This document shows positions 23,782 through 61,143 of a DNA stretch of 64,000 nt, piece after piece. Source of the DNA: an uncultured bacterium (GTDB lineage Bacteria; Patescibacteriota; Patescibacteriia; SG8-24; DYFX01); NCBI GenBank assembly GCA_937900255.1, contig CALCDZ010000002.1, positions 9,655 through 73,654 on the forward strand, read 5' to 3'. Each line of letters starts with the position of its first letter. Position 1 is the stretch's first letter. The notes beneath the pieces are model-generated. The model did no database searches, was not told the origin of the DNA, and worked only from the letters and a program-made list of their open reading frames with translations. Position numbers and translations under genes: made by a program.

Positions 23782-24750
23782 TCAAGATGCTTGTCTTTCG
23801 AGATATTCGTAGGTCTCGCGCAGTCCGGCCTCGAGAGGCGTGGTAGCGCGCCAACCGATCAGCTGTTCCATCTTGGTCACGTCCGGCGTCCGGTACTTGA
23901 TCTCCATCTTGCGCACCGGCAGGTATTCGATCTTCAGGTTCTTGCCCGAGAGGGCGATGACTTGTTCCGCCAGCTCCTGAATGGTGGTCGGGACGCCCTT
24001 GCCGACGTTGATGGTCTCGCCGTCGGTCTCCTTCTTGAGCATGGCCGTCAGGATGCAATCGATGTTGTCCTTATAGAAGACGAAGTCACGGGTGGCGGAA
24101 CCGTCGCCGAAGATGTGGAGCGGCTCGCCTTTGCGGGCGCGGTCGAGGAAGATGCCGACGACGAAGCCGTACGGCGAACTTTCCTGCCTCGGTCCGTAGA
24201 CGTTGAAGAAACGCAAAGCCACGGTCGGCAGGCCGTACTGATGATAGTAATGGTAGGTCAAGTTCTCTCCGAGCATCTTGACCAAGCTGTACGGGTCGCG
24301 TGGGCTGGGGTTGACCGCGCCGTGCTCATGAGACGGCAGCTGGATGGGCTCCCCGTAGACCTCCGACGAGGATGAGTAGAGGATCTTCTTCACCTTGCGG
24401 TCCTTGCAGAATTCGAAGATGGCCCGGATGCCGTCGATGTCCCTCAGTACGTCAAGCGGGCGCTCCTCGACCCGTTTCACGCCGCAAAAAGCGCCGAGAT
24501 GGAAGACATAGTCGGGCGTGGAGGCATCGAAGGCGCGATCGAGCGTCGCCCAGTCGTTGGCGTTTCCTTGGATGAAGGTGAAATCCGGGTTGCCGTCGTG
24601 TTGGGCGAGGTTGTCGCGCTTTCCGGTGGAGAGGTCATCGAGAACGATGACTTTGGCCCCCAGCCCGAGCAGGCGATCGGTCAGATGAGATCCGATGAAT
24701 CCGGCGCCACCGGTCACGAGGACGTTCGCTCCTTTATAAGCTTCGAACAT
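23782..24750 (-). CDS. NAD-dependent epimerase/dehydratase (UDP-glucuronate decarboxylase / UDP-sugar 4-epimerase-like SDR)
   Basis: VLVTGGAGFIGSHL Rossmann motif and YxxxK. Start placed at M37 (24750) because a terminator hairpin for the upstream gene occupies 24818-24850. Confidence 0.8.
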   Translation of the reverse strand: MFEAYKGANVLVTGGAGFIGSHLTDRLLGLGAKVIVLDDLSTGKRDNLAQHDGNPDFTFIQGNANDWATLDRAFDASTPDYVFHLGAFCGVKRVEERPLDVLRDIDGIRAIFEFCKDRKVKKILYSSSSEVYGEPIQLPSHEHGAVNPSPRDPYSLVKMLGENLTYHYYHQYGLPTVALRFFNVYGPRQESSPYGFVVGIFLDRARKGEPLHIFGDGSATRDFVFYKDNIDCILTAMLKKETDGETINVGKGVPTTIQELAEQVIALSGKNLKIEYLPVRKMEIKYRTPDVTKMEQLIGWRATTPLEAGLRETYEYLERQAS

Positions 24751-24817
24751 AATAGGAGATAGTGTGACGAATCGTCCTGATTGTGCCAGGGAAGCCAGCA
24801 AAGCACAATGGCGGGAC

Positions 24818-24850
24818 GTATTAAAAGACCCCGCATCAGAGGAGGCGGGG
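24818..24850 (-). terminator. Rho-independent terminator (minus strand) after the hypothetical gene 24855..25250
   Basis: On the minus strand: CCCCGCCTCCTCTGATGCGGGG followed by TCTTTTAAT. Confidence 0.65.
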
Positions 24851-24854
24851 GACA

Positions 24855-25250
24855 TCACTTCTTGTCGGGCTTCGGAGGTGCGTCTTCCGTGGCGGGCACG
24901 ACGATGGGGTCGACTCCAGGGATATCGACCTGGATTTCCTTGATCTTGTTGGGAGGCAGCTTGCCCCCGACCTGTTGCGCGGCTTTCTTTGCTGCGTCGG
25001 CCTGAGCCGACCGGCCGCCTGGCGCGGCTTTGCGGACGGCTTCGCGTACTTCTTCCGTCGCTGGTCTCCCGACCTTGTCGGCCAGTTCCTTGGCCGCTTG
25101 GTTGTCTCTCTCGACCCTGTCTCGACTGGGGTCCCTTTTGGAAGGAACGTTTTCTACTCGGGGCTTGACCTTCACCCCGACATCGCCCGGGTCGACAGGC
25201 GCGTTCCGTTCATCTGCGGGCGTACCTGCATTCGGCTTCTTTTCGGACAT
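24855..25250 (-). CDS. Hypothetical low-complexity (K/P/A/E-rich) protein
   Basis: 131 aa. Likely disordered. Good GC3. Terminator downstream. Confidence 0.45.
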   Translation of the reverse strand: MSEKKPNAGTPADERNAPVDPGDVGVKVKPRVENVPSKRDPSRDRVERDNQAAKELADKVGRPATEEVREAVRKAAPGGRSAQADAAKKAAQQVGGKLPPNKIKEIQVDIPGVDPIVVPATEDAPPKPDKK

Positions 25251-25461
25251 GACGGCTCTCCTGAATGAACGTGTGGTGACATCTTGACATCGGGATAATT
25301 GTCTGTAAAGCGTCCGGGATGACTTTTGAGAATAGGTAGCACTTCTTGTTGTATTGATGCCAAGTCACGCAGATTGCTACCCGCAGCGTTGAGTTTTTGA
25401 CAGAATGGGGGGGTTCCATGTAAGTTGAAACAAGTTCATTTTGAACGGAAAGAGGATCGAA

Positions 25462-26190
25462 ATGGGAAATTCTTGGATGCTGCTGGCGGCAATCTCTTGT
25501 GTCATTGCTTGCGCTCACGAGCAGGACAACGGTTGGGATACCGGACTCGATGGCAACGTCAAAGAGACGGTTGCTCAAATCCAGTCGGTACAATGCCGAA
25601 AAACGGATGCTGTCTTGCGTTCGGAGGGTCTGCACGAAGATCAGCTAGGGCTTGTGCGTGACTTCTGCCGCCAGACCTTGCGACAGATGGCCATAGCCCT
25701 AACCGATCGTTTCGAGGAATCAAGACGGCGGGCCGAACTTGCGAAGACCTCCGAATCCTTCTACGCGTGCACGTACGAGGGGTACAATACCGGCATACCG
25801 AGCTATTCGGACCTTGGCCTTTCCTCTGGAACATGCTCTTGGCATGATCCGAATCCGGAATGCCAAGTATTCTACGCTTGCTTGTGGGGGTGCAATAATG
25901 TCGACCCTTCGCTTGGTTGGCACATCAAGTGGTATACCAGCAGGAGTGCACTGGAGGCGGATATTTTCCCCAAAGGGTATTCTTACGTGTCCGGCACGGG
26001 CGAAGGTGGCGGTTACCGTCGTACGTTACCCAATGGATACAGCTACCAAGTCCATTCCCTGACCATCGATGCGAATGGCATGGGGAACTGGCACAATGAA
26101 GGACCCGAGCCCGACCCGAGGTTTAACTGGAGCGGTTATCTCGGAGGTTGGTGGCCTTACGAAGTGAAGGCCTGGCACGACCACTGCTAG
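25462..26190 (+). CDS. Cys/Trp/Tyr/Gly-rich secreted lipoprotein (low-GC islet)
   Basis: AAAGAGGA RBS lies 7 nt before ATG 25462. Signal peptide with lipobox VIAC. 10+ Cys. Local GC is about 52%, against roughly 65% for the genome. Confidence 0.55.
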   Translation: MGNSWMLLAAISCVIACAHEQDNGWDTGLDGNVKETVAQIQSVQCRKTDAVLRSEGLHEDQLGLVRDFCRQTLRQMAIALTDRFEESRRRAELAKTSESFYACTYEGYNTGIPSYSDLGLSSGTCSWHDPNPECQVFYACLWGCNNVDPSLGWHIKWYTSRSALEADIFPKGYSYVSGTGEGGGYRRTLPNGYSYQVHSLTIDANGMGNWHNEGPEPDPRFNWSGYLGGWWPYEVKAWHDHC

Positions 26191-48239: not shown

Positions 48240-50976
<2,737 letters not shown>

Positions 50977-50987
<11 letters not shown>

Positions 50988-52104: not shown

Positions 52105-52524
52105 ATGCCAAGCCTGGAAGAAGTCTACGGCCGTTTGCGCGCAAAAAAGCGGGAAAAGAGCGAGATCCAGAAGGCTTTCAAGGACGAGCTGGTCAATAAC
52201 CCTCGCTACCAGCAGGTCTCCGAGCAGCTCAAGACGCTGAAGGAGGAGAAGAAGTCGATCGAGAACCAAGCCTGGGCCAGCGCTTCGGCTGACGCCCAGA
52301 AGCTCGACCTCCTGACGCTCGACATCGAGTCGGACAAGGAGATGCTTTCCGATATGGCCCTGAACATGTACACCAAGGGCCAGACGGTCGAGATCGTCGA
52401 CGAGCACAACACCCGCTGGCTTCCGAAGTTTTCGGTCTCATTCAAGAAAGACGACGTGCTGCAGGAGGAGCGCACGTCGGCTGCCGCCGCGGTTCCGGTC
52501 CCGGAACCTGATTTCGCGGCTTGA
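52105..52524 (+). CDS. Hypothetical protein
   Basis: 139 aa. Charged coiled-coil-like N-terminus. No recognisable family. Confidence 0.45.
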   Translation: MPSLEEVYGRLRAKKREKSEIQKAFKDELVNNPRYQQVSEQLKTLKEEKKSIENQAWASASADAQKLDLLTLDIESDKEMLSDMALNMYTKGQTVEIVDEHNTRWLPKFSVSFKKDDVLQEERTSAAAAVPVPEPDFAA

Positions 52525-52537
52525 CGCGCTCCTCCCT

Positions 52538-53179
52538 ATGGACGAGAAGGCAATCCAGAGATTGAACACGGCCATTTCGGTGGTGTTCATCGTCGCGGCC
52601 GCCGCGCTCTTCATCATCGCTCTCAGGCACCGCGGCTCGGGCGCTCCGACCCCCGCGCCTCAAGCGGCGACCGGCACTCCGGAGACGGCCGCCTTCGACG
52701 ACCTGGCAGGCATGCGGCAGCTGCAGCTCGCCAAAGGTTTCGCCAGCTGGACTCCGGATGCCAAGATCGACGAGGGGAAGACGCGAGCGCTTTCGCTCGC
52801 CGTCAAGGGTCAGGTCGCCAAGGCGTATCTGGGCGTGAGCGCGTCGGTCGCCGGAAAGCCGCTCACGAAATACGAGAGCGTCTTCGTCAAGTTCAATGAC
52901 GTCGGCGGACACCTGTTCCGCCCGCGAAGCCTGAAGACCCCGGACGATGCCGGTCCGACCCGCCTTCTCTACGACCTGAACGAGCTTCCGGTCCTTCCGA
53001 GCGTGCCTTACGACGAGACGCGGAAGCCCACGACGGCCGTTCCATACGCCCTGTTCAAAGACGGCCGGTCCGTCAGGTTGACGGCATTCATCTCGTCCCT
53101 CCGCCCCGCGCTGCTCGAGGACCTGTCGATTTCCTACGTCTGCGCCGAGGGATCGGACTGCGCCATCGCCGCGAAGTGA
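52538..53179 (+). CDS. Hypothetical membrane-anchored/secreted protein
   Basis: N-terminal TM/signal anchor AISVVFIVAAAALFIIAL. 213 aa. Confidence 0.45.
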   Translation: MDEKAIQRLNTAISVVFIVAAAALFIIALRHRGSGAPTPAPQAATGTPETAAFDDLAGMRQLQLAKGFASWTPDAKIDEGKTRALSLAVKGQVAKAYLGVSASVAGKPLTKYESVFVKFNDVGGHLFRPRSLKTPDDAGPTRLLYDLNELPVLPSVPYDETRKPTTAVPYALFKDGRSVRLTAFISSLRPALLEDLSISYVCAEGSDCAIAAK

Positions 53180-53188
53180 TCGGGAAGA

Positions 53189-53220
53189 CGAAACCGCCTG
53201 TCGGCGGTTTTGCGTTTTTC
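53189..53220 (+). terminator. Rho-independent terminator
   Basis: AAACCGCC-tgtc-GGCGGTTTT followed by GCGTTTTT. Confidence 0.7.
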
Positions 53221-53260
53221 TCGGCTATCCGTCTAAGATGGCCACGACCTTCAAACAGGA

Positions 53261-53995
53261 GTGAAAATGGAACCGACGCTCTTTGACAGGCGTTCAAAAG
53301 CGCTTCTCGACCGTTTCGATCACGGGCAGCAACGCGCGCGGCGCGCAGAGCGGCCGTTCATGGTCGAATTGCTTGGAACTTCCAATTCCGGCAAGACGAC
53401 GTTGATGGATCGCCTTTATACGGAATTCAAGGGGATGGGGTACCAGGTGGCCAAGGTGCCGGAAGGGGCGGAGGTGATACCGCCGCCGCGCATGTTGCCG
53501 GTCTACAACCTCGAGACCGGCGACTATGCCGTGGGCAGGGCCCGCCGTCTCGCTTACGACAGGAACATCCATCTGGCGATTTTCGACCGCGCGATTTTCG
53601 ATACGGCGGTGTGGCTGGAGATATACCGTACCAGAGGCCTCATCAGCGAGGAGGAGCACGACGCGTTTTCACGGACGTATCTCAGCCGTTTCAACCGCGA
53701 GCTGTTCGACCTGCACGTCTTCCTCGTCTGCGGTCCGGAGAAGGCGCTGGCACGCAAGTACGGCGGGGAAGGATACGCCGCACGCGAAGCGCGTGGAGAG
53801 GTGGCGTATGGGAAGACCACGAACCCCGCCGCCTTGGCGGCATCTCTTGCCGCGCACGAGACCGTCTGGAACCGTCATGGATCCGATCCGCGCCTGTTCT
53901 GGGTCGATACGACCGAACTGGATGCCGGGGGCGTCGCCGAGCATGTATTTGAAGCCTGCCTGCAGGCTTTCGAACGCCGGCTCATGAGTCCCTGA
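53261..53995 (+). CDS. P-loop nucleoside/nucleotide kinase-like protein (dNK/thymidylate-kinase-like fold)
   Basis: LLGTSNSGKTTLMDRL Walker A. DRAIFDTAVW region resembles the dNK ERS/DRY region. 244 aa. Confidence 0.55.
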   Translation: MKMEPTLFDRRSKALLDRFDHGQQRARRAERPFMVELLGTSNSGKTTLMDRLYTEFKGMGYQVAKVPEGAEVIPPPRMLPVYNLETGDYAVGRARRLAYDRNIHLAIFDRAIFDTAVWLEIYRTRGLISEEEHDAFSRTYLSRFNRELFDLHVFLVCGPEKALARKYGGEGYAAREARGEVAYGKTTNPAALAASLAAHETVWNRHGSDPRLFWVDTTELDAGGVAEHVFEACLQAFERRLMSP

Positions 53996-53998
53996 GCG

Positions 53999-54030
53999 CC
54001 GTGCTTCCTTAGCACGGCTTTTTTTGTTAC
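53999..54030 (+). terminator. Rho-independent terminator
   Basis: GCCGTGCT-tcctta-AGCACGGC followed by TTTTTTT. Confidence 0.7.
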
Positions 54031-54041
54031 GGTGCGATGGC

Positions 54042-54635
54042 ATGACTCTCCCGCGCATCGGCATCGATTTCGACGGCGTCATCATCGACCACCGCCCGCA
54101 TAAGCTGCGGTTGGCCGAAGCGTTGGGATTCGTCCTTGAACCGTGGCAGACGAACGCGAACGTCATGGAAAGGCATCTCGAGGACGACAGCTACCGCTCG
54201 GTCCAGAAATCGCTGTATGGCGAGCTGACGGTACAGGCTCCTCCGGTCAAGGATGCGCTGGAAACGCTCGCGCGCTTGCCGGCAGAGCTTTATGTCATTT
54301 CCGCGCGCCGGCCCGAGAACGTCGCTTCGGCCCGCAGCTGGATGGCGAAGCATCGTCTGCATGATATCGTGCCGGAAGATCGCGTCATCTTCTGCTCCTC
54401 CGGCAAGGATAAGCGCGAGCATGTCGAGCGGCTCGGCATCTCGATCTTCCTTGACGACAAGATCGCGTACCTCGATTTCCTTCCGGAGCGGGTGCGGCGC
54501 GTGCTGTTCGACGAGGATGACGTCATGGCGCGTCTGGCCGTCCCGCCGCAGATGGAAACCGCCGCGTCCTGGCCGGAGTTCGAACTCCTGGTTTCCGGGG
54601 GCGAAAGGGAACCGACCCGACGATCCGGGGCATGA
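54042..54635 (+). CDS. HAD-superfamily hydrolase (5'(3')-deoxyribonucleotidase-like)
   Basis: IGIDFDGVI matches HAD motif I (DxDGV). Start could be ATG 54024. Confidence 0.6.
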   Translation: MTLPRIGIDFDGVIIDHRPHKLRLAEALGFVLEPWQTNANVMERHLEDDSYRSVQKSLYGELTVQAPPVKDALETLARLPAELYVISARRPENVASARSWMAKHRLHDIVPEDRVIFCSSGKDKREHVERLGISIFLDDKIAYLDFLPERVRRVLFDEDDVMARLAVPPQMETAASWPEFELLVSGGEREPTRRSGA

Positions 54636-54732: not shown

Positions 54733-56802
54733 ATGACACAGCGCAGCGGACGATCGTTTTTTCACTACCTTACGGTCCCGTTCATCTGGATCGGCAAGGG
54801 ATTGGCGGGCCTCGCAAAACCGACGCCCAGGGGCAGGACCCGCTGGTCGGTTTTCGTCGTGATCGCCGTGGCCGTCTTGGCCGGTTTCCTTGCCTATCCG
54901 CAGGCTTGGGATAAGGGCGCCGACGCCTGGAACGCCAAGGTCGTCACGGCCGCGAAACTGCCGAGCGCCTTCAAAGTCCCGCATTTCAAGAACATCGCTT
55001 ATCGCCTCGGACTCGATCTGCAGGGAGGGACGTATCTGGTCTACGAAGCGGACACGAAGGAGATTCCCGAATCGGAGCGCGCCACGGCGCTCGACGGCGT
55101 GCGCGACGTCATCGAACGCCGCGTGAACGCCTTCGGCGTCTCCGAACCGGTCGTCCAGACCAACAAGGCCGGAGCGTCTTGGCGCATCGTCGTCGAGCTG
55201 GCCGGCGTGAAAGATATCTCCCAGGCGATCCAGATGATCGGAGAGACGCCGATCCTCGAGTTCAAGGAAGAAAATCAGGCGAGCGCGGTTCCTTTGACGC
55301 CGGACCAGCAGAAGGCGCTGGATGCCAAGAATGCCGACGTGAAGAAGCAGGCTGCCGATGCGCTGCGCAAAGCCCAGTCGAACCCGTCCGACCCCGCCCT
55401 CTCTTGGGAGAAGCTCGGCCTCGTCGAGCAGGCGTCGCAGCCCGCCCTTTGGAAGTGGGCTGACGCTCACAAAACCTCGAAGCTCGCCTGGGAAACGGTC
55501 GACGACGGCCAGGAACTGAACGTCCTGCGCATCAATGGCCGTGACGATAGCCAGAAGGAGCTTCGTGCAAGCCATATCCTGATCTGCTTCAAGGGCGCGC
55601 AGGGCTGCAGCGAAGAAACGACCAAGGAGGCGGCACTCGCGCAGATCACCAAACTCCGGAGCGATTTGACGCAGAAGAATTTCGGAGAAAAGGCCAAGGC
55701 GTTTTCGACTGATGGTTCGGCCAAGGAGAATGCTGGCGATCTGGGCTGGTTCGGTCCGAACGCGATGGTCAAGGCGTTCGAGGATGGCGCGTCCGCGCTC
55801 AAGGTCGGGGAGATTTCCCAGCCCGTCGAATCGCCTTTCGGCTATCACCTCATCCTCAAGACGGGGGAGAGGCCGATGGTGCGTTATGACCTCGACCGCA
55901 TCGCCTTCAAGAAGGCGACGGCGGAAGACGTGCGCCCCGCGCCCGATCAGTGGAAGAACACCGGGTTGTCCGGCAAGGACGTCCAGCACGCCCAGGTCGA
56001 ATTCGACTCGACGTCCGGACGGCCTCAGGTCCTCCTCGCCTTCAACGATGAAGGGAAGAAGATGTTCGGGGAGATCACCAAGCGGAATGTCGGCAAGCTC
56101 GTGGCCATCTTCCTGGACGGCCAGCCCATCTCGATTCCGCGCGTCCAGCAGGAAATCAGCGACGGGAACGCCGTCATTTCCGGCACGTTCGACTTCAAGG
56201 AAGCGAAGCTGCTTGCGCAGCGATTGAATGCGGGCGCGCTGCCGGTACCCATCAAGCTGCTCTCGCGGCAGACGATCGGGGCTTCCCTCGGGCAGGACTC
56301 CCTGCAGAAGAGCCTGTATGCGGGTTCTCTCGGTTTCCTGATCGTGGTCGTGTTCATGATCCTCTACTACCGGCTCCCTGGCCTCCTGGCCTCGCTGGCC
56401 TTGGCCATGTATACGGCTTTCACGCTGGCTGCCTTCAAGCTGCTCGGCATCACCCTCACCCTCTCCGGCATCGCCGGCGTGATCCTCTCGATCGGCATGG
56501 CGGTCGATGCCAACATCCTGATCTTCGAGCGCATGAAGGAAGAGGGCAAGAACGGCCATCCGCTCGAATCGGCCGTCACCGAAGGCTTCAAACGCGCCTG
56601 GATGTCCATCAGGGACTCCAACGTCTCATCGCTGCTCACCTGCGCCATCCTGTACGGCTTCACCTCGAGTTCCGTGCGCGGCTTCGCGGTGACGCTGGCC
56701 ATCGGCATCCTGATCTCGATGTTCTCGGCCATCACCGTGACGCGTTCCTTGCTGCGCCTCGTCGCGCCCTGGGTGTCCAAACATCGCTGGCTGTTCAAAT
56801 AA
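54733..56802 (+). CDS. secD: Protein translocase subunit SecD with inserted parvulin-type (PpiC) PPIase domain
   Basis: 689 aa. N-terminal TM, then periplasmic P1 domain. Residues about 265-380 (SHILICFKG...GDLGWFGPNAMVKAFEDGA...GYHLILKTG) match the rotamase/PpiC signature. C-terminal 6-TM SecD core. Confidence 0.85.
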   Translation: MTQRSGRSFFHYLTVPFIWIGKGLAGLAKPTPRGRTRWSVFVVIAVAVLAGFLAYPQAWDKGADAWNAKVVTAAKLPSAFKVPHFKNIAYRLGLDLQGGTYLVYEADTKEIPESERATALDGVRDVIERRVNAFGVSEPVVQTNKAGASWRIVVELAGVKDISQAIQMIGETPILEFKEENQASAVPLTPDQQKALDAKNADVKKQAADALRKAQSNPSDPALSWEKLGLVEQASQPALWKWADAHKTSKLAWETVDDGQELNVLRINGRDDSQKELRASHILICFKGAQGCSEETTKEAALAQITKLRSDLTQKNFGEKAKAFSTDGSAKENAGDLGWFGPNAMVKAFEDGASALKVGEISQPVESPFGYHLILKTGERPMVRYDLDRIAFKKATAEDVRPAPDQWKNTGLSGKDVQHAQVEFDSTSGRPQVLLAFNDEGKKMFGEITKRNVGKLVAIFLDGQPISIPRVQQEISDGNAVISGTFDFKEAKLLAQRLNAGALPVPIKLLSRQTIGASLGQDSLQKSLYAGSLGFLIVVVFMILYYRLPGLLASLALAMYTAFTLAAFKLLGITLTLSGIAGVILSIGMAVDANILIFERMKEEGKNGHPLESAVTEGFKRAWMSIRDSNVSSLLTCAILYGFTSSSVRGFAVTLAIGILISMFSAITVTRSLLRLVAPWVSKHRWLFK

Positions 56803-56803
56803 T

Positions 56804-57718
56804 ATGTTGCGCATCACCCAACACCGCCGCGTCTTCTACGTATTCTCGGGCATCCTCATGGCCGCGTCCCTGGCGGCATGGCTTCTCTGGGGACTCAAGC
56901 CTGGCATCGATTTCACCGGCGGCTCGATGATGGAAATCGAGTTTTCCAAAGGGCGTCCGACGGTCGCTGAGGTCTCCTCGGCAGCCAGCGCTTCCATCGG
57001 CTCCAAGGAAACGGGGGTCCAGCCGCTCGGCGAGAGCAGCATGGTCCTGCGCATGCCTCCGCTCGAGGAAACCGCGCATCGCAAGCTCTCCGCCGACCTC
57101 AAGGCGGCTTTCGAGAAGGACGGCGACACCCTGACGGAAAAGCGTTTCGAATCCATCGGTCCGGTCATCGGAGAAGAACTCCGCAAGAATACCGTCTACG
57201 CCGTCGTCGCTGCCATCTTGGCGATCGTGTTCTATATCACCTACGTCTTCAGGAAGGTCTCCTATCCGGTCGCTTCCTGGAAATACGGCGTCAGCACGAT
57301 CGTGGCGCTTTGCCATGACGTGGTGATACCGGTCGGCGTCTTTTCCGCCCTCGGGCATTTCATGGGAGTGGAAGTCGGCGCCTGGGTCGTCACGGCGCTC
57401 CTGACCGTCCTCGGTTTCTCGGTGCATGACACCATTGTGGTGTTCGACCGCATCCGCGAGAACCTTTCGCACGCGCATCGCGAAGGGTTCGAAGAGGTCG
57501 TGAACCGCAGCATGAACGAGACGATCGGCCGTTCCGTCAATACGTCGCTCACGGTGCTCCTCGTGCTGATCGTCACGTACGTCTTCGGGGGGGAATCCAT
57601 CAAGGACTTCATCCTGACCATGATCATCGGCATCGCCGCCGGCACCTACTCTTCCATCTTCGTGGCCAGCCCGCTCCTCGTGAGCTGGCAGCTTCGGGAC
57701 GAGCGCGCCCGGCGCTAG
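56804..57718 (+). CDS. secF: Protein translocase subunit SecF
   Basis: 304 aa. Starts 1 nt after secD. SecF TM core. Confidence 0.85.
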   Translation: MLRITQHRRVFYVFSGILMAASLAAWLLWGLKPGIDFTGGSMMEIEFSKGRPTVAEVSSAASASIGSKETGVQPLGESSMVLRMPPLEETAHRKLSADLKAAFEKDGDTLTEKRFESIGPVIGEELRKNTVYAVVAAILAIVFYITYVFRKVSYPVASWKYGVSTIVALCHDVVIPVGVFSALGHFMGVEVGAWVVTALLTVLGFSVHDTIVVFDRIRENLSHAHREGFEEVVNRSMNETIGRSVNTSLTVLLVLIVTYVFGGESIKDFILTMIIGIAAGTYSSIFVASPLLVSWQLRDERARR

Positions 57719-57796: not shown

Positions 57797-59137
57797 GTGG
57801 ACTTCCCCCAAATCGTCATCAATCTCTCCGGACTCTACGGATTGCTGGAAAAGCCCTTGCCGGAACTCTGGTGGACGGTTTTCGTATACGGAGGCTGGAT
57901 TCCGGTCGTCATCATCATGTGGAACGGCTTCAAGGAACTCTGGCTGCTCTCGAGGCAGGACAAATATGCCCCGACGATCCAGTACATCGTGCTGAGCGTC
58001 AGCATCCAGCGCCTGAACGAGCAGACGCCGAAGGCGATTGAGCACATGTTCACGCACCTGGCGGGAATCTACTCCTCGCCGAACTTCAAGGAGAAATGGT
58101 GGGTCGGCAAGTTCACGCCGTCATTCTCTTTCGAATACGCCTCGATCGACGGCTATACCCAGTTCATCATCCGGACGCCCGTCCAATACAGGGACCTGGT
58201 CGAGGCCTCGATCTTCTCCCAGCATCCGGATGCCGAAATCGTCGAAATCACCGATTACACGAAGAACGTCCCGCACGCGTACCCGGATCCGGAGTGGGAT
58301 TGCTGGGGGACCGAGTTCACGCTCGCCAAGGCCTCCGCGTATCCGTTGCGGACGTTTTCGGAGTTCGAACATGCCCTCTCCCAGGAACTGAAGGATCCGC
58401 TCTCTACGCTGCTCGAGACCCTTTCCCGCCTCAAGAAGGGGGAACAGGTCTGGATCCAGATCCTGGTCTCGCCGCGCGACCAGGACTGGGCCAAGGAATC
58501 GATCGCGCTCACCGACAAGCTCAAGGGACGCCCGCCCAAGAAGAAGGCGCCGCCGCTTTGGCAGCACGTCATAGAATCAGGCGTCGGGTTCGGGGTCACG
58601 GCCCTCAACCAGCTCGCCGGCGGCGGGGCTACGGGCGAAGCGAAGAAGCCTGAAAAGAAGGAGGACAACAAGGTCATGAACCTCTCGCCCGGAGAGCGGA
58701 AGATGCTCGAACAGATCGAGATCAAGGCATCCAAGATCGGTTTCGGGGTCAAGATCCGTTTCGTGTATGTCGGCAAGCGCGGCGTCTATCGCAAGGGGCC
58801 CGTCATCTCCATGATCAAGGGGGCCTTCGGCCTTTTCGGGTCGCTGGACGGCAACAGCTTCAAGAACTACGGGAAAGTCGCCCCGAAGTCGGACTATTTC
58901 TGGCAGCGCTGGTCTGCGGACAAGAAAAAGACCAAGATCATCAAGGCGTTCTCGAACCGCTCCTCGAGCGGTGCCGACCGCTTCGTCTTGAATGTGGAGG
59001 AACTCGCCAGCCTGTGGCACTTCCCGCAGGTCCAGACCAAGGCGCCGCTTCTCAAGAAGGTCGAATCGAGGAAGGTGGAACCGCCGTTCTCCCTGCCGGC
59101 GGTGCCCGACGAATTGCCGGGACTGCCTGACGCCTGA
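57797..59137 (+). CDS. Hypothetical membrane protein (N-terminal TM pair + large K-rich soluble domain)
   Basis: 446 aa. TM LWWTVFVYGGWIPVVIIMW. GTG start abuts the terminator T-tract with no SD, so the start is uncertain. Coding GC3 is good. Confidence 0.5.
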   Translation: MDFPQIVINLSGLYGLLEKPLPELWWTVFVYGGWIPVVIIMWNGFKELWLLSRQDKYAPTIQYIVLSVSIQRLNEQTPKAIEHMFTHLAGIYSSPNFKEKWWVGKFTPSFSFEYASIDGYTQFIIRTPVQYRDLVEASIFSQHPDAEIVEITDYTKNVPHAYPDPEWDCWGTEFTLAKASAYPLRTFSEFEHALSQELKDPLSTLLETLSRLKKGEQVWIQILVSPRDQDWAKESIALTDKLKGRPPKKKAPPLWQHVIESGVGFGVTALNQLAGGGATGEAKKPEKKEDNKVMNLSPGERKMLEQIEIKASKIGFGVKIRFVYVGKRGVYRKGPVISMIKGAFGLFGSLDGNSFKNYGKVAPKSDYFWQRWSADKKKTKIIKAFSNRSSSGADRFVLNVEELASLWHFPQVQTKAPLLKKVESRKVEPPFSLPAVPDELPGLPDA

Positions 59138-59142
59138 ACCCT

Positions 59143-61143
59143 ATGCCGTTCGAAGTCGAGCCGTACAATCACGACCACGAGAACGAGGTCATCCCGTTCG
59201 CCGAGACGAACTTCCGCGGAGAGAAGCGGCGTTTCGGCATCAAGACCGACGACCGCCGAAGGCACGTCTACATCGTCGGCAAGACCGGCATGGGCAAGAC
59301 GACCCTGCTCGAGAACTTCGTGCTCTCCGACATCTATGCCGGTCACGGGGTCTGCTACGTCGATCCCCACGGCGACACCGCCGACAAGATCCTCGATTTC
59401 ATCCCCCCGTGGCGCATCAACGACGTCGTCCATTTCAATCCGGCCGACATGGATTTCCCGGTCGGTTTCAACATTCTCGAGATTTCCAACGAGAACCAGA
59501 AGCACTTGGTCGCCTCCGGGCTGATGGGCGTCTTCAAGAAGATCTGGCCCGACGTCTGGTCGGCGCGCATGGAATACATCCTGCTCAACTGCGTGCAGGC
59601 GCTGCTCGACACGCCCGGCTCGACCCTTCTCGGCATCAGCCGCATCCTTGCCGACAAGGATTTCCGGAAGAAGATCGTCGAGAACGTGAAGGATCCGGTC
59701 GTCAAGGGTTTTTGGGTCAACGAGTTCGCCAAGTACACCGACAAGTTCGCTTCGGAAGCCATCGCTCCCGTCCAGAACAAGGTCGGACAGTTCCTGTCGA
59801 ATACCGTCATCCGCAACATCGTCGCGCAGTCGAAGTCGACCATCGACCTGCGCAAGATCATGGACACGCGCAAGATCCTGATCGTCAACCTCTCGAAAGG
59901 CCTGGTCGGAGAGGACTCGAGCAAGCTGCTCGGCGGCATGCTCATCACGCGCCTCCAGCTGGCCGCCATGGAACGCGTCGACATGATGGAAAAGGATCGT
60001 CAGGATTTCTACCTGTACGTCGACGAGTTCCAGAACTTCGCGACCGAATCGTTCGCCAACATCCTGTCGGAAGCCCGCAAGTACCGCCTGGCGCTCATCA
60101 CGGCCCATCAGTACATCGAGCAGCTGGAGGAGGAAGTGGCGGCCGCCGTCTTCGGCAACGTCGGCACCATCATCGCGTTCCGCGTCGGCGCGAACGATGC
60201 CCAGCAGCTCGCCAAGGAGTTCGCGCCGACCTTCGAGGAGACCGGCGAGGATTTCATCAACCTGGCGAAGTTCGAGATCTACCTGAAACTGATGATCGAC
60301 GGCGTGGCGTCGACGCCCTTTTCCGCGAAGTCGTTGCCGCCGATCGCGAAACGCACCGACAGCCGTGCCAAAGTCGTGGCGGCTTCGCGCGAGCGGTATG
60401 CCATCACGCGCGTCGAGATCGAGAAGAAGGTCAACGCATGGGCCGGGTTCGACGAGGAGACCGGGACGTTCATCGGCAAGCCTTCGGCTTCAGGAACCTC
60501 TTCGGGCGGCGATTCTTTCGGCTCCGATCCCGAACGGCAATACAAAGCCGCCTGCTCGCGGTGCGGCAAGGAACTGCATCTCAAGTTCCCTCCGGATCCG
60601 TCCAGGCCGTTCTATTGCAAGGAGTGCCTTCCGCTCGCGCGTGCCGAAGCGGCCGCTGCACCGCGGGTGCCGCAACCCTCAAGGCCTCCGGTTCCGGTCC
60701 GTCAGCCGGCGCCCATGACCCGGCCGCCGAACTCAGCCGTCGCTCCGGTGCCCGCACCGGCGAAACCGGTCGCGCCGCCGCCTCGCGCCGTGAGCCCTGC
60801 CTCATCCGCAGCTCCGGCGAAAACACCCGCCGTTTCGCCGAAGGCGACCGACGCGAGACCACCAGCCCCCCCGAAACCTCCCGTCCAAAAAACGGCTCCA
60901 TCTCCGCGCCCGCTCCCTCCCGCCCCGAAACCCGGCATGTTCGAGGGGAAGATCCGTCTCGTGCAGGAATCCGAACCCGAGAGCGCAGCGGTCGGCAAGC
61001 AGGAAAATCCTCCCTCACCGGCCCCTCCGAAAATCTCACCGCCCCCGGTCCCGCCCGTCCAATCGAGCGCTCCCTCCGTTCCGAGGGCGCTGAAGCCCGG
61101 CGAAAGCGTCAGGTTCGATGAGGAAGGGAAAAGCCCCGTTTGA
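59143..61143 (+). CDS. T4CP/VirD4-TraD-like (HerA-FtsK superfamily, DUF87-type) P-loop ATPase with C-terminal zinc ribbon and Pro/Ala-rich tail
   Basis: Walker A YIVGKTGMGKTTL. YVDPHGD (T4CP-like DPxGD). Walker B LYVDEFQNF. CSRCGK-x19-CKEC zinc ribbon. A 160-aa P/A/S-rich tail. Confidence 0.7.
   Translation: MPFEVEPYNHDHENEVIPFAETNFRGEKRRFGIKTDDRRRHVYIVGKTGMGKTTLLENFVLSDIYAGHGVCYVDPHGDTADKILDFIPPWRINDVVHFNPADMDFPVGFNILEISNENQKHLVASGLMGVFKKIWPDVWSARMEYILLNCVQALLDTPGSTLLGISRILADKDFRKKIVENVKDPVVKGFWVNEFAKYTDKFASEAIAPVQNKVGQFLSNTVIRNIVAQSKSTIDLRKIMDTRKILIVNLSKGLVGEDSSKLLGGMLITRLQLAAMERVDMMEKDRQDFYLYVDEFQNFATESFANILSEARKYRLALITAHQYIEQLEEEVAAAVFGNVGTIIAFRVGANDAQQLAKEFAPTFEETGEDFINLAKFEIYLKLMIDGVASTPFSAKSLPPIAKRTDSRAKVVAASRERYAITRVEIEKKVNAWAGFDEETGTFIGKPSASGTSSGGDSFGSDPERQYKAACSRCGKELHLKFPPDPSRPFYCKECLPLARAEAAAAPRVPQPSRPPVPVRQPAPMTRPPNSAVAPVPAPAKPVAPPPRAVSPASSAAPAKTPAVSPKATDARPPAPPKPPVQKTAPSPRPLPPAPKPGMFEGKIRLVQESEPESAAVGKQENPPSPAPPKISPPPVPPVQSSAPSVPRALKPGESVRFDEEGKSPV

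Follow-up and report, generated by a model that had tools for sequence, protein, structure and literature searches.

A SecD of Patescibacteria with two parvulin modules inserted in its P1 domain, a candidate translocon-tethered foldase

The secD gene described here (positions 54733 to 56802, plus strand) lies in a 64,000-nucleotide stretch of DNA from an uncultured bacterium of the Patescibacteriota (contig CALCDZ010000002.1, positions 9,655 to 73,654), which as a whole is referred to below as the window. The gene runs from ATG to stop in the list of open reading frames (ORFs), giving 689 amino acids (aa) plus the stop codon, and encodes a complete SecD into which about 226 residues (aa 182 to 408; 55276 to 55956, plus strand) are inserted, in the connector between the base and the head of the periplasmic P1 domain. 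To judge from sequence comparison and structure prediction, this insertion consists of two parvulin modules, one of them (module II) canonical and the other (module I) an eroded remnant that seems to be completed by a strand lying behind module II. We consider it probable (roughly 60%), by analogy with known partners of the Sec machinery, that the protein is a translocon-tethered foldase/chaperone, in which a parvulin at the neck of the P1 arm would bind the chains that SecDF pulls out and would isomerize their prolyl bonds at release.

That the gene is secD, as an earlier note made from the sequence alone had proposed, was borne out by Pfam, by the NCBIfam secD model TIGR01129 and by alignment with the SecDF of Thermus thermophilus (3AQP). 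TIGR01129 matched residues 92 to 674 in a single stretch covering the complete profile (positions 1 to 397; 383.3 bits against a cut-off of 244.4), and because this match bridges the whole profile, the extra sequence is an insertion in a complete SecD and not a divergent P1. Pfam placed Sec_GG at aa 91 to 109 and SecD_1st at aa 122 to 181 ahead of the insertion, and SecDF_P1_head at aa 409 to 505 (E = 6e-28, profile positions 18 to 114 of 114) and SecD_SecF_C at aa 508 to 676 behind it, so that the canonical SecD core does resume past the parvulin, as the note had it. In the alignment with 3AQP, residues 90 to 183 correspond to T. thermophilus residues 33 to 121 and residues 410 to 678 to T. 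thermophilus residues 158 to 426. The gap between these two blocks, which delimits the insertion, holds about 226 residues in the window SecD opposite 36 in T. thermophilus SecDF, that is, about 190 extra.

We scanned species-representative genomes with an alignment of the family and classed the SecD loci found (at least 80, a sample and not a census) by the distance between their P1-base and P1-head matches. Canonical SecDs have 2 to 60 residues at the base-to-head connector and SecDs with modules have more; in the shortest canonical forms (L074, L079, and L080), the gap between the LEFKE strand and the first strand of the head is only 2 to 5 residues. Since in such short SecDs the LEFKE strand is followed almost at once by the head, the parvulin unit is placed as an insertion in the base-to-head connector, to which it is joined by short, conserved linkers (PLT at 187 to 189 and P..DPWKNTGLSG at 401 to 414). 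When the insertion was modeled by itself with AlphaFold2 (AF2), the predicted local distance difference test score (pLDDT) was 92 and the predicted template modeling score (pTM) 0.72. Two kinds of error were considered. A normal, merely divergent P1 head was ruled out by the shortness of this region in canonical SecDs and by the secD model that bridges the insertion. Chimerism introduced by assembly or gene calling, or a chance match of a parvulin profile to a P1 head that has merely diverged, has a negligible probability and is effectively refuted. The identical protein, with the same neighbors, is found on independent ENA, Logan, and NCBI contigs, and so the feature is not an assembly accident; more than 200 homologous protein clusters carry the SecD-parvulin architecture, and all 120 of the best homologous clusters (50 to 100% identity) share the Pfam combination of the window protein. 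The parvulin match has a Pfam E value of 4e-23, the AF2 parvulin fold superposes on solved structures at 2.3 to 3.0 Å, and the 2 to 60 residues of canonical SecDs at this site argue in the same direction.

Module II (aa ~271 to 378; 55543 to 55866, plus strand), delimited by Pfam, conservation, and Foldseek, is the parvulin (PpiC) domain that the earlier note had located at about residues 265 to 380 of the periplasmic P1 region. The Pfam families Rotamase_3 (PF13616; 264 to 374; E = 4.1e-23; 82.6 bits against a gathering score of 22.5) and Rotamase (PF00639; 281 to 375; E = 3.6e-22; 79.6 bits against 21.7) both match here, within the range of about 260 to 385 where such a match had been expected, and the motifs quoted in the note (SHILI, GDLGWF, NAMVKAFEDGA, and GYHLILKTG) are all present in the ORF. 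The note's picture of a single parvulin was right in that there is one genuine parvulin; the insertion, however, extends over about 226 residues and not about 115, and it includes a second, degenerate module and a displaced β-strand.

The catalytic tetrad of module II is formed by H281, D327, S367, and H372, which we take to be the counterparts of Pin1 H59, C113, T152, and H157 (aligned by eye with the Pin1 sequence), and its proline pocket by L337, M345, and F349. Among 120 homologues, H281 is conserved in 119 and an acidic residue at position 327 (D/E), a Ser or Thr at position 367, and H372 in all 120; for the pocket, the counts are 118 for L337, 119 for M345, and 120 for F349. Tetrad and pocket are thus ~99 to 100% conserved down to 50% overall identity. 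The AF2 model of module II (pLDDT > 90) has the four-stranded sheet and four helices of the parvulin fold, and Foldseek superposed it on Pin1, PrsA, SurA-P2, and Par14 at 2.3 to 3.0 Å over 111 to 113 columns; its best sequence match in the Protein Data Bank (PDB) is the P2 domain of SurA (E = 7e-18). Module II is a member of the parvulin family with, as far as its residues indicate, a full catalytic site. Just past its β1, a C-x6-C pair (C285 and C292; 55585 to 55608) shows at least 90% conservation within the two-module family and is missing from the single-module and Peregrinibacteria forms; this pair could be an extracytoplasmic disulfide, stapling the β1-α1 loop.

Module I (aa ~187 to 270; 55291 to 55542, plus strand) runs from α1 to β4 and has no N-terminal β1. 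In homologues at 52 to 62% identity, the segment ahead of the Pfam match reads ...AKKKAEEVLKKAK..GADFAALAKEYSEDEATK..GGDLGF...LIET..G.NI.K, a pattern that comprises helix 1 and the S.D..K..GGDLG motif and, last, a strand with Asn in place of the second catalytic His. Nine of 10 relatives in this range of identity have two Pfam Rotamase stretches. In the relative P0060, the first of these (161 to 269) follows directly behind SecD_1st and begins at profile position 20, which implies that β1 is missing from it. With hhalign, the N-terminal segment of distant relatives aligned with a parvulin-II profile from α1 to β4 (98.6%; E = 9e-16), and the window-clade segment (aa 182 to 262) aligned in turn with that of the distant relatives (98.4%; E = 5e-15), carrying a deletion of ~12 to 20 residues with which the S.D..K..GG part is gone. 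Compared directly with the parvulin profile, the window-clade segment gave no significant hhalign match (0.6%), and Pfam found no second Rotamase stretch in the window protein itself, so that the homology of module I to parvulins is supported by a transitive link, through the intermediate relatives only. The equivalent of the second catalytic His (His-2) in module I is Asn263, with N in 66 and H in 14 members of the family. On these comparisons, module I appears to be a decayed parvulin, catalytically dead and devoid of catalytic histidines. We also considered whether aa 182 to 263 might be an N-terminal chaperone domain like that of PrsA or SurA, and rejected this candidate on the grounds that the relatives' segment aligns to the parvulin profile from α1 to β4 and that relatives have the second Rotamase stretch.

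The survey of SecD loci revealed a graded series of no, one, or two modules at the same connector site. Most SecDs among the matches listed, many Patescibacteria included, have no insertion (gap of 2 to 60 aa); the Patescibacteria without one include Uhr-, Taga-, Ryan-, Niyogi-, Nomura-, Taylor-, and Daviesbacteria and others. One parvulin match goes with a gap of 134 to 152 aa (L007, L009, and L010 [Buchananbacteria], L011 [Kerfeldbacteria], and L012 [Moranbacteria]), and two parvulin matches go with a gap of 240 to 250 aa (L003 to L005). SecDF fusions from Peregrinibacteria (L006 and L008) have one detectable parvulin in a gap of 261 to 295 aa.

In single-module SecDs, the LEFKE strand of the base is followed by a parvulin running from α1 to β4 (...FGYHI..), a loop of 13 to 25 aa, a trailing strand (e.g., CSHILIQ, ASHILF, or SAHILI), and the P1 head. 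This trailing strand is, by its sequence, the β1 of the parvulin with the first catalytic His, placed behind β4, and the domain is thus circularly permuted. In their native order, four single-module insertions matched Pfam Rotamase only from profile position 8 to 14. When the trailing strand was moved to the front, the match began at position 1 and improved in all four, by 1.6 to 4.4 bits, in spite of the penalty for the long loop. A second homology search gave 94 single-module SecDs of 540 to 612 aa, with Buchananbacteria, Falkowbacteria, and Parcubacteria among the source names. His-2, the trailing xHIL His, and the Thr/Ser are each present in 94/94 of them and the Asp in 92/94 (the other 2 have Glu); the xHIL strand follows His-2 by 16 to 24 residues in the 75 of the 94 that were matched by motif, and none of the 94 has a β1-like motif between LEFKE and the parvulin body.

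The single-module proteins of Buchanan-, Falkow-, Kerfeld-, and Moranbacteria share with the window type the site of insertion and its flanks (LEFKE...PLT and ...W.NTGLTGK). They differ from it in having one permuted module, with both histidines invariant; in the window type, a module of canonical order is added between β4 and the trailing strand, and decay has affected the outer module. These relationships suggest that a single permuted, fully catalytic parvulin at this site was the ancestral state and that the window type arose from it by tandem duplication or by insertion, one active site decaying afterward.

In the window type, the order is body I, the β1 strand ASHILIC, body II, and a trailing strand. 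The last of these, which we designate β1′ (aa 383 to 393, VRYDLDRIAFK; 55879 to 55911, plus strand) and interpret as the displaced β1 of module I, stands where single-module SecDs have the invariant xHIL strand; the position of its His is occupied by Arg389 in the window protein and by R in 82 and H in 15 of the 120 homologues. Conservation goes in pairs: H281 of ASHILIC is kept together with the residues of module II, and the His of body I has mostly been lost, as has the trailing-strand His. Across the 120 homologues, His is present at both the His-2 position of module I and the trailing-strand position in 13, at neither in 104, and at one of the two in 3 (Fisher's P = 1.6e-14 for co-occurrence, a value not used as independent evidence). 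This co-retention is consistent with pairing of body I with the trailing strand and is not independent proof of it. Furthermore, in both the full-length and the insertion-only AF2 runs, residues 261 to 284 and 370 to 393 form continuous 24-residue strands (pLDDT > 90), as would be expected if β4(I)-β1(II) and β4(II)-β1′(I) formed one antiparallel ribbon through both sheets.

Because of the paired conservation, the joint loss and retention, and the continuous strands of the AF2 models, we assign ASHILIC to body II and the trailing strand to body I; the alternative pairing of the β1 strands would leave two half-dead sites. We strongly infer that module I is circularly permuted, so that module II is nested in module I and module I in SecD. 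With Foldseek, no solved structure matched the two-module unit as a whole, and SurA aligned over 217 columns at 13 Å.

Like module II, PrsA (e.g., Bacillus subtilis 4WO7 and Bacillus anthracis 6VJ4) is a parvulin that acts outside the cytoplasm, has kept its catalytic site, and is fixed on the membrane beside the Sec exit, and the two parvulin cores superpose at ~2.8 Å with 38% identity. PrsA, however, is a separate lipoprotein dimer with its parvulin inserted in an N/C chaperone domain, whereas the window SecD has no N/C domain and no lipobox, is anchored by SecD itself, and has a permuted parvulin as the host of the nested one. The PrsA models of NCBIfam scored 69.9, 63.4, and 56.3 bits with the window protein (cut-offs of 361, 343, and 360, respectively), driven by the parvulin core; the best match (query residues 270 to 425) extends ~50 residues beyond it. 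As the models stay below their cut-offs, the upstream segment is parvulin derived, and the protein starts with the first transmembrane helix (TM1) of SecD instead of a lipobox, we do not place it in the PrsA family. The SurA model matched the parvulin region only (53.1 bits; cut-off, 394), which likewise speaks against membership. The label "PrsA/SurA-type" in the earlier note therefore has to be dropped, with model scores of 53 to 70 bits against cut-offs of 343 to 394 and no N/C chaperone domain found.

The parvulin domain of PpiD is catalytically inactive, whereas module II of the window protein keeps the full tetrad. PpiD-YfgM of Escherichia coli and Vibrio is associated with SecYEG and SecDF, a partnership that has become covalent in the window protein. 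PpiD is anchored by a TM helix of its own and has large chaperone domains; the tether of the window unit is its insertion in the P1 connector. No PpiD model was among the best 25 of 46 NCBIfam matches. PpiD has been found to contact SecD (PMC9643414). SurA has been found to bind the holotranslocon (SecYEG-SecDF-YidC), at the periplasmic domains of SecDF if AlphaFold predictions are followed (PMC9987972). Like the insertion, SurA has two parvulin modules, one dead (P1) and one live (P2); unlike it, SurA is soluble, and its parvulins have the canonical order, are carried on an N/C core domain, and are arranged differently with respect to each other, as the 13 Å over 217 columns indicates. Mpn444, a lipoprotein of Mycoplasma pneumoniae with a PPIase domain, cross-links to SecD (bioRxiv 10.1101/2024.09.05.611430). 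It offers a likeness, by description only, of a PPIase/chaperone beside SecD in a minimal-genome, wall-less or monoderm organism, and differs in being a separate trimeric surface lipoprotein and not an insertion in SecD.

We propose that the parvulin unit is located on the outer side of the cytoplasmic membrane, where the arm with which SecD captures and pulls chains has its neck, and that it would there bind unfolded chains emerging from SecYEG and catalyze prolyl cis/trans isomerization as they are released. A single polypeptide would then be a foldase/chaperone fixed to the translocation motor, in the role of separate partners of the PpiD, SurA, or PrsA type. In a structure-based model, the P1 head contacts precursors through an amphiphilic cavity and swings between a membrane-facing and an upright position, pulling chains from SecYEG (PMC5974789). 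A foldase held by a tether where chains leave the Sec channel is a reasonable idea, in keeping with the noncovalent contacts of SecD with PpiD, of SecDF with SurA, and of SecD with Mpn444. The further suggestion of the earlier note, that the fusion is a compact answer to a shortage of periplasmic chaperones, is a conjecture: no other parvulin is encoded within the 64-kb window, the part of the genome covered, while many Patescibacteria SecDs have no insertion. A more specific form of the proposal, which we put forward only tentatively and hold to be doubtful, is that the swing of the P1 head, driven by the proton motive force, delivers the captured chain to the hinge-mounted parvulin site, such that each power stroke would end in isomerization and release, with a permuted, nested topology not described before as the mount.

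Several points weigh against the tethered-foldase proposal and the topology on which it is built. The full-length AF2 model has a pTM of 0.44, so the model does not fix how the parvulin unit is placed and oriented with respect to the P1-head cavity and SecYEG. The PPIase activity of SurA, PpiD, and PrsA is often dispensable in vivo, and conserved catalytic residues are for that reason no proof that catalysis is what has been selected. Many Patescibacteria SecDs have no insertion, and so the lineage does not generally require one. As for the topology, the pairing of β4(I) with β1′ is a strong deduction from secondary structure and conservation patterns, and the 13 proteins with both histidines belong to one clade (66 to 88% identity) and hence represent a single inherited state.

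The main rival to a tethered foldase is a holdase, an extension of substrate capture in which the modules mainly give the P1 head more surface for binding and keep hold of unfolded chains, catalysis being incidental. Module I, which has no catalytic residues and is yet kept as a folded unit in every two-module member, argues for a noncatalytic role of at least half of the insertion, and the published SecD partners PpiD and SurA have been described mainly as chaperones. We nevertheless regard a holdase as rather unlikely to account for the insertion, given the near-complete conservation of the tetrad and pocket of module II down to 50% identity and the retention of both histidines in 94 of 94 single-module forms. 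Such conservation exceeds what maintenance of a fold usually needs, and inactive parvulins like module I lose these residues quickly. A purely mechanical or architectural role, which we rank as the weaker rival, is improbable. Here, a rigid two-domain ribbon would serve as a lever, spacer, or docking arm that tunes the swing of the P1 head or reaches the cell wall, an S-layer, or a host surface and not substrates. The position of the insertion exactly in the base-to-head connector, i.e., in the hinge region, would suit such a role, the two 24-residue strands suggest a stiff unit, and non-parvulin insertions occur at the same site elsewhere (171 to 245 aa in Dehalococcoidia and 123 to 173 aa in proteobacteria). 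It leaves unexplained, however, why this clade always has a parvulin there, and one whose active site is intact.

The non-parvulin insertions at this connector (123 to 245 aa; L044, L047, L056, L072, L081, and L082) come from Dehalococcoidia, Capsulimonadaceae, and proteobacteria. Such bulky insertions in other lineages mean that the site tolerates, and may exploit, additions of any fold, and the base-to-head connector looks like a hot spot at which domains are added in general.

In the full-text literature searched, itself incomplete, we found no description of a SecD-parvulin fusion and no mention of a circularly permuted parvulin. The architecture is common in public metagenome data, where named copies are called SecD only, and it is not hidden, as the Pfam combination is visible in precomputed matches. 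How SecDF hands chains that have left SecYEG to periplasmic or extracytoplasmic chaperones is a standing question of the field, and the current evidence for contacts of SecDF with PpiD, of SecDF with SurA, and of SecD with Mpn444 consists of cross-links, low-resolution electron microscopy, and AlphaFold models. That SecD and a parvulin are covalently fused in nature, widely and with the catalytic site under purifying selection, is independent, evolutionary evidence that the two act jointly. If the more specific form of our proposal, with isomerization coupled to the power stroke, is true, these proteins of Patescibacteria would be natural Rosetta-stone evidence for the handover of chains from SecDF to a parvulin chaperone as a general step of bacterial secretion. 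The fusion also offers a single-chain object for cryo-electron microscopy and biochemistry and a design template for engineered secretion hosts, for instance with a foldase grafted into the P1 connector, and the parvulin family would gain a new topology from the permuted parvulin and the nested two-module form. A survey of the candidate phyla radiation (CPR) reported PrsA-type annotations in all CPR classes (PMC9166423); it is speculative, though conceivable, that PrsA calls in CPR genomes sometimes reflect a parvulin embedded in SecD.

Several other proteins came to light in the searches. In the Peregrinibacteria (L006, 865 onward; L008, 2986 onward), SecD and SecF are fused in a protein of 1,066 to 1,149 aa with a long parvulin insertion, and the His of the trailing strand is replaced (YKFASILYI). 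A 281-aa protein (P0253) has SecDF_P1_head (72 to 139) followed by a parvulin (173 to 276) and no SecD TM core; it represents either a fragment or a soluble protein in which the two folds came together independently. Free-standing proteins of 360 to 415 aa with three tandem parvulins (P0124, P0125, and P0127 to P0130) are the closest non-SecD relatives of the module (37 to 44% identity), and a second free-standing group of ~640 to 650 aa has two parvulin domains; the free-standing tandem parvulins may be the source or paralogues of the SecD modules. Some contigs with SecDs of the Patescibacteria type (L005, L007, L018, L023, and L028; P0026, P0049, and P0058) are labeled Gammaproteobacteria, Lysobacteraceae, Baltobacteraceae, Eisenbacteria, or Binatia, and these are probably misbinned or mislabeled metagenome-assembled genomes.

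Apart from the insertion, the window protein has the layout of a SecD of the RND superfamily, with TM1, a large periplasmic P1 made up of base and head, and five further TM helices (from Pfam and the AF2 helices), and the top Foldseek matches are SecDF structures. TM1 lies at aa ~38 to 56 (54844 to 54900, plus strand, as are all features of the gene; AF2 helix, 32 to 54). The N-terminal part of the P1 base (aa 88 to 181, Sec_GG plus SecD_1st; 54994 to 55275) ends in the strand ILEFKE, the core of the P1 head, which is the mobile, substrate-contacting subdomain (aa 409 to 507; 55957 to 56253), was placed by Pfam and corresponds to T. thermophilus SecDF from residue 158, and TM2 to TM6 (aa 508 to 681; 56254 to 56775) were placed by SecD_SecF_C and the 3AQP alignment. 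The canonical SecD and SecDF proteins of known structure (T. thermophilus 3AQP and 5YHF and Deinococcus radiodurans 5XAM to 5XAP) have in common with the window SecD the TM core, the P1 base and head, the proton-relay residues, and an adjacent SecF, and differ from it in lacking ~190 residues at the base-to-head connector. D592 aligns with T. thermophilus D340, the TM4 Asp of the proton path, and is invariant in 71 sequences. The secF gene (56804 to 57718, plus strand; 304 aa; TIGR00966, 283 bits against a cut-off of 160) begins one base past the secD stop codon, and its product has the equivalents of T. thermophilus D637 (HDTIVV) and R671 (IGRSV) in the 3AQP alignment. With its proton-relay residues intact and its SecF partner adjacent, the SecDF motor looks functional as far as can be read from the sequence.

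The ~35 residues ahead of TM1 (aa 1 to 36; 54733 to 54840) are poorly conserved, with residues 3 to 15 missing from most homologues, and AF2 places a second hydrophobic helix there (aa 9 to 28). Given this poor conservation, the true start of SecD may lie downstream of the annotated ATG, which would leave the insertion unaffected.

Upstream on the same strand, 3.7 kb from secD, lies secA (48240 to 50987; 915 aa). The interval between them holds NUDIX and deoxynucleoside-kinase genes, followed by four small ORFs (52105 to 54635), three of which (52105 to 52524, 52538 to 53179, and 54024 to 54635) have no Pfam match, while the fourth (53261 to 53995) has only weak matches to P-loop kinases, below cut-off. 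Next after secF is a gene for a 446-aa protein (57797 to 59137, plus strand) that has DUF8128 in precomputed matches and no match in our own scan, and then one for a 666-aa coupling ATPase of the TrwB/TraG type (59143 to 61143, plus strand) with a treble-clef zinc finger and a long Pro/Ala-rich tail. These two, beside the Sec genes, look like a type IV secretion or DNA uptake pair. No tRNA gene, no rRNA, and no other Rfam family above its gathering score was found in the whole window; the names that sources give to homologues point to Patescibacteria/Parcubacteria. The GC content is 0.60 to 0.65 throughout the window, high for Patescibacteria, and falls to 0.57 in one 2-kb block (24001 to 26000).

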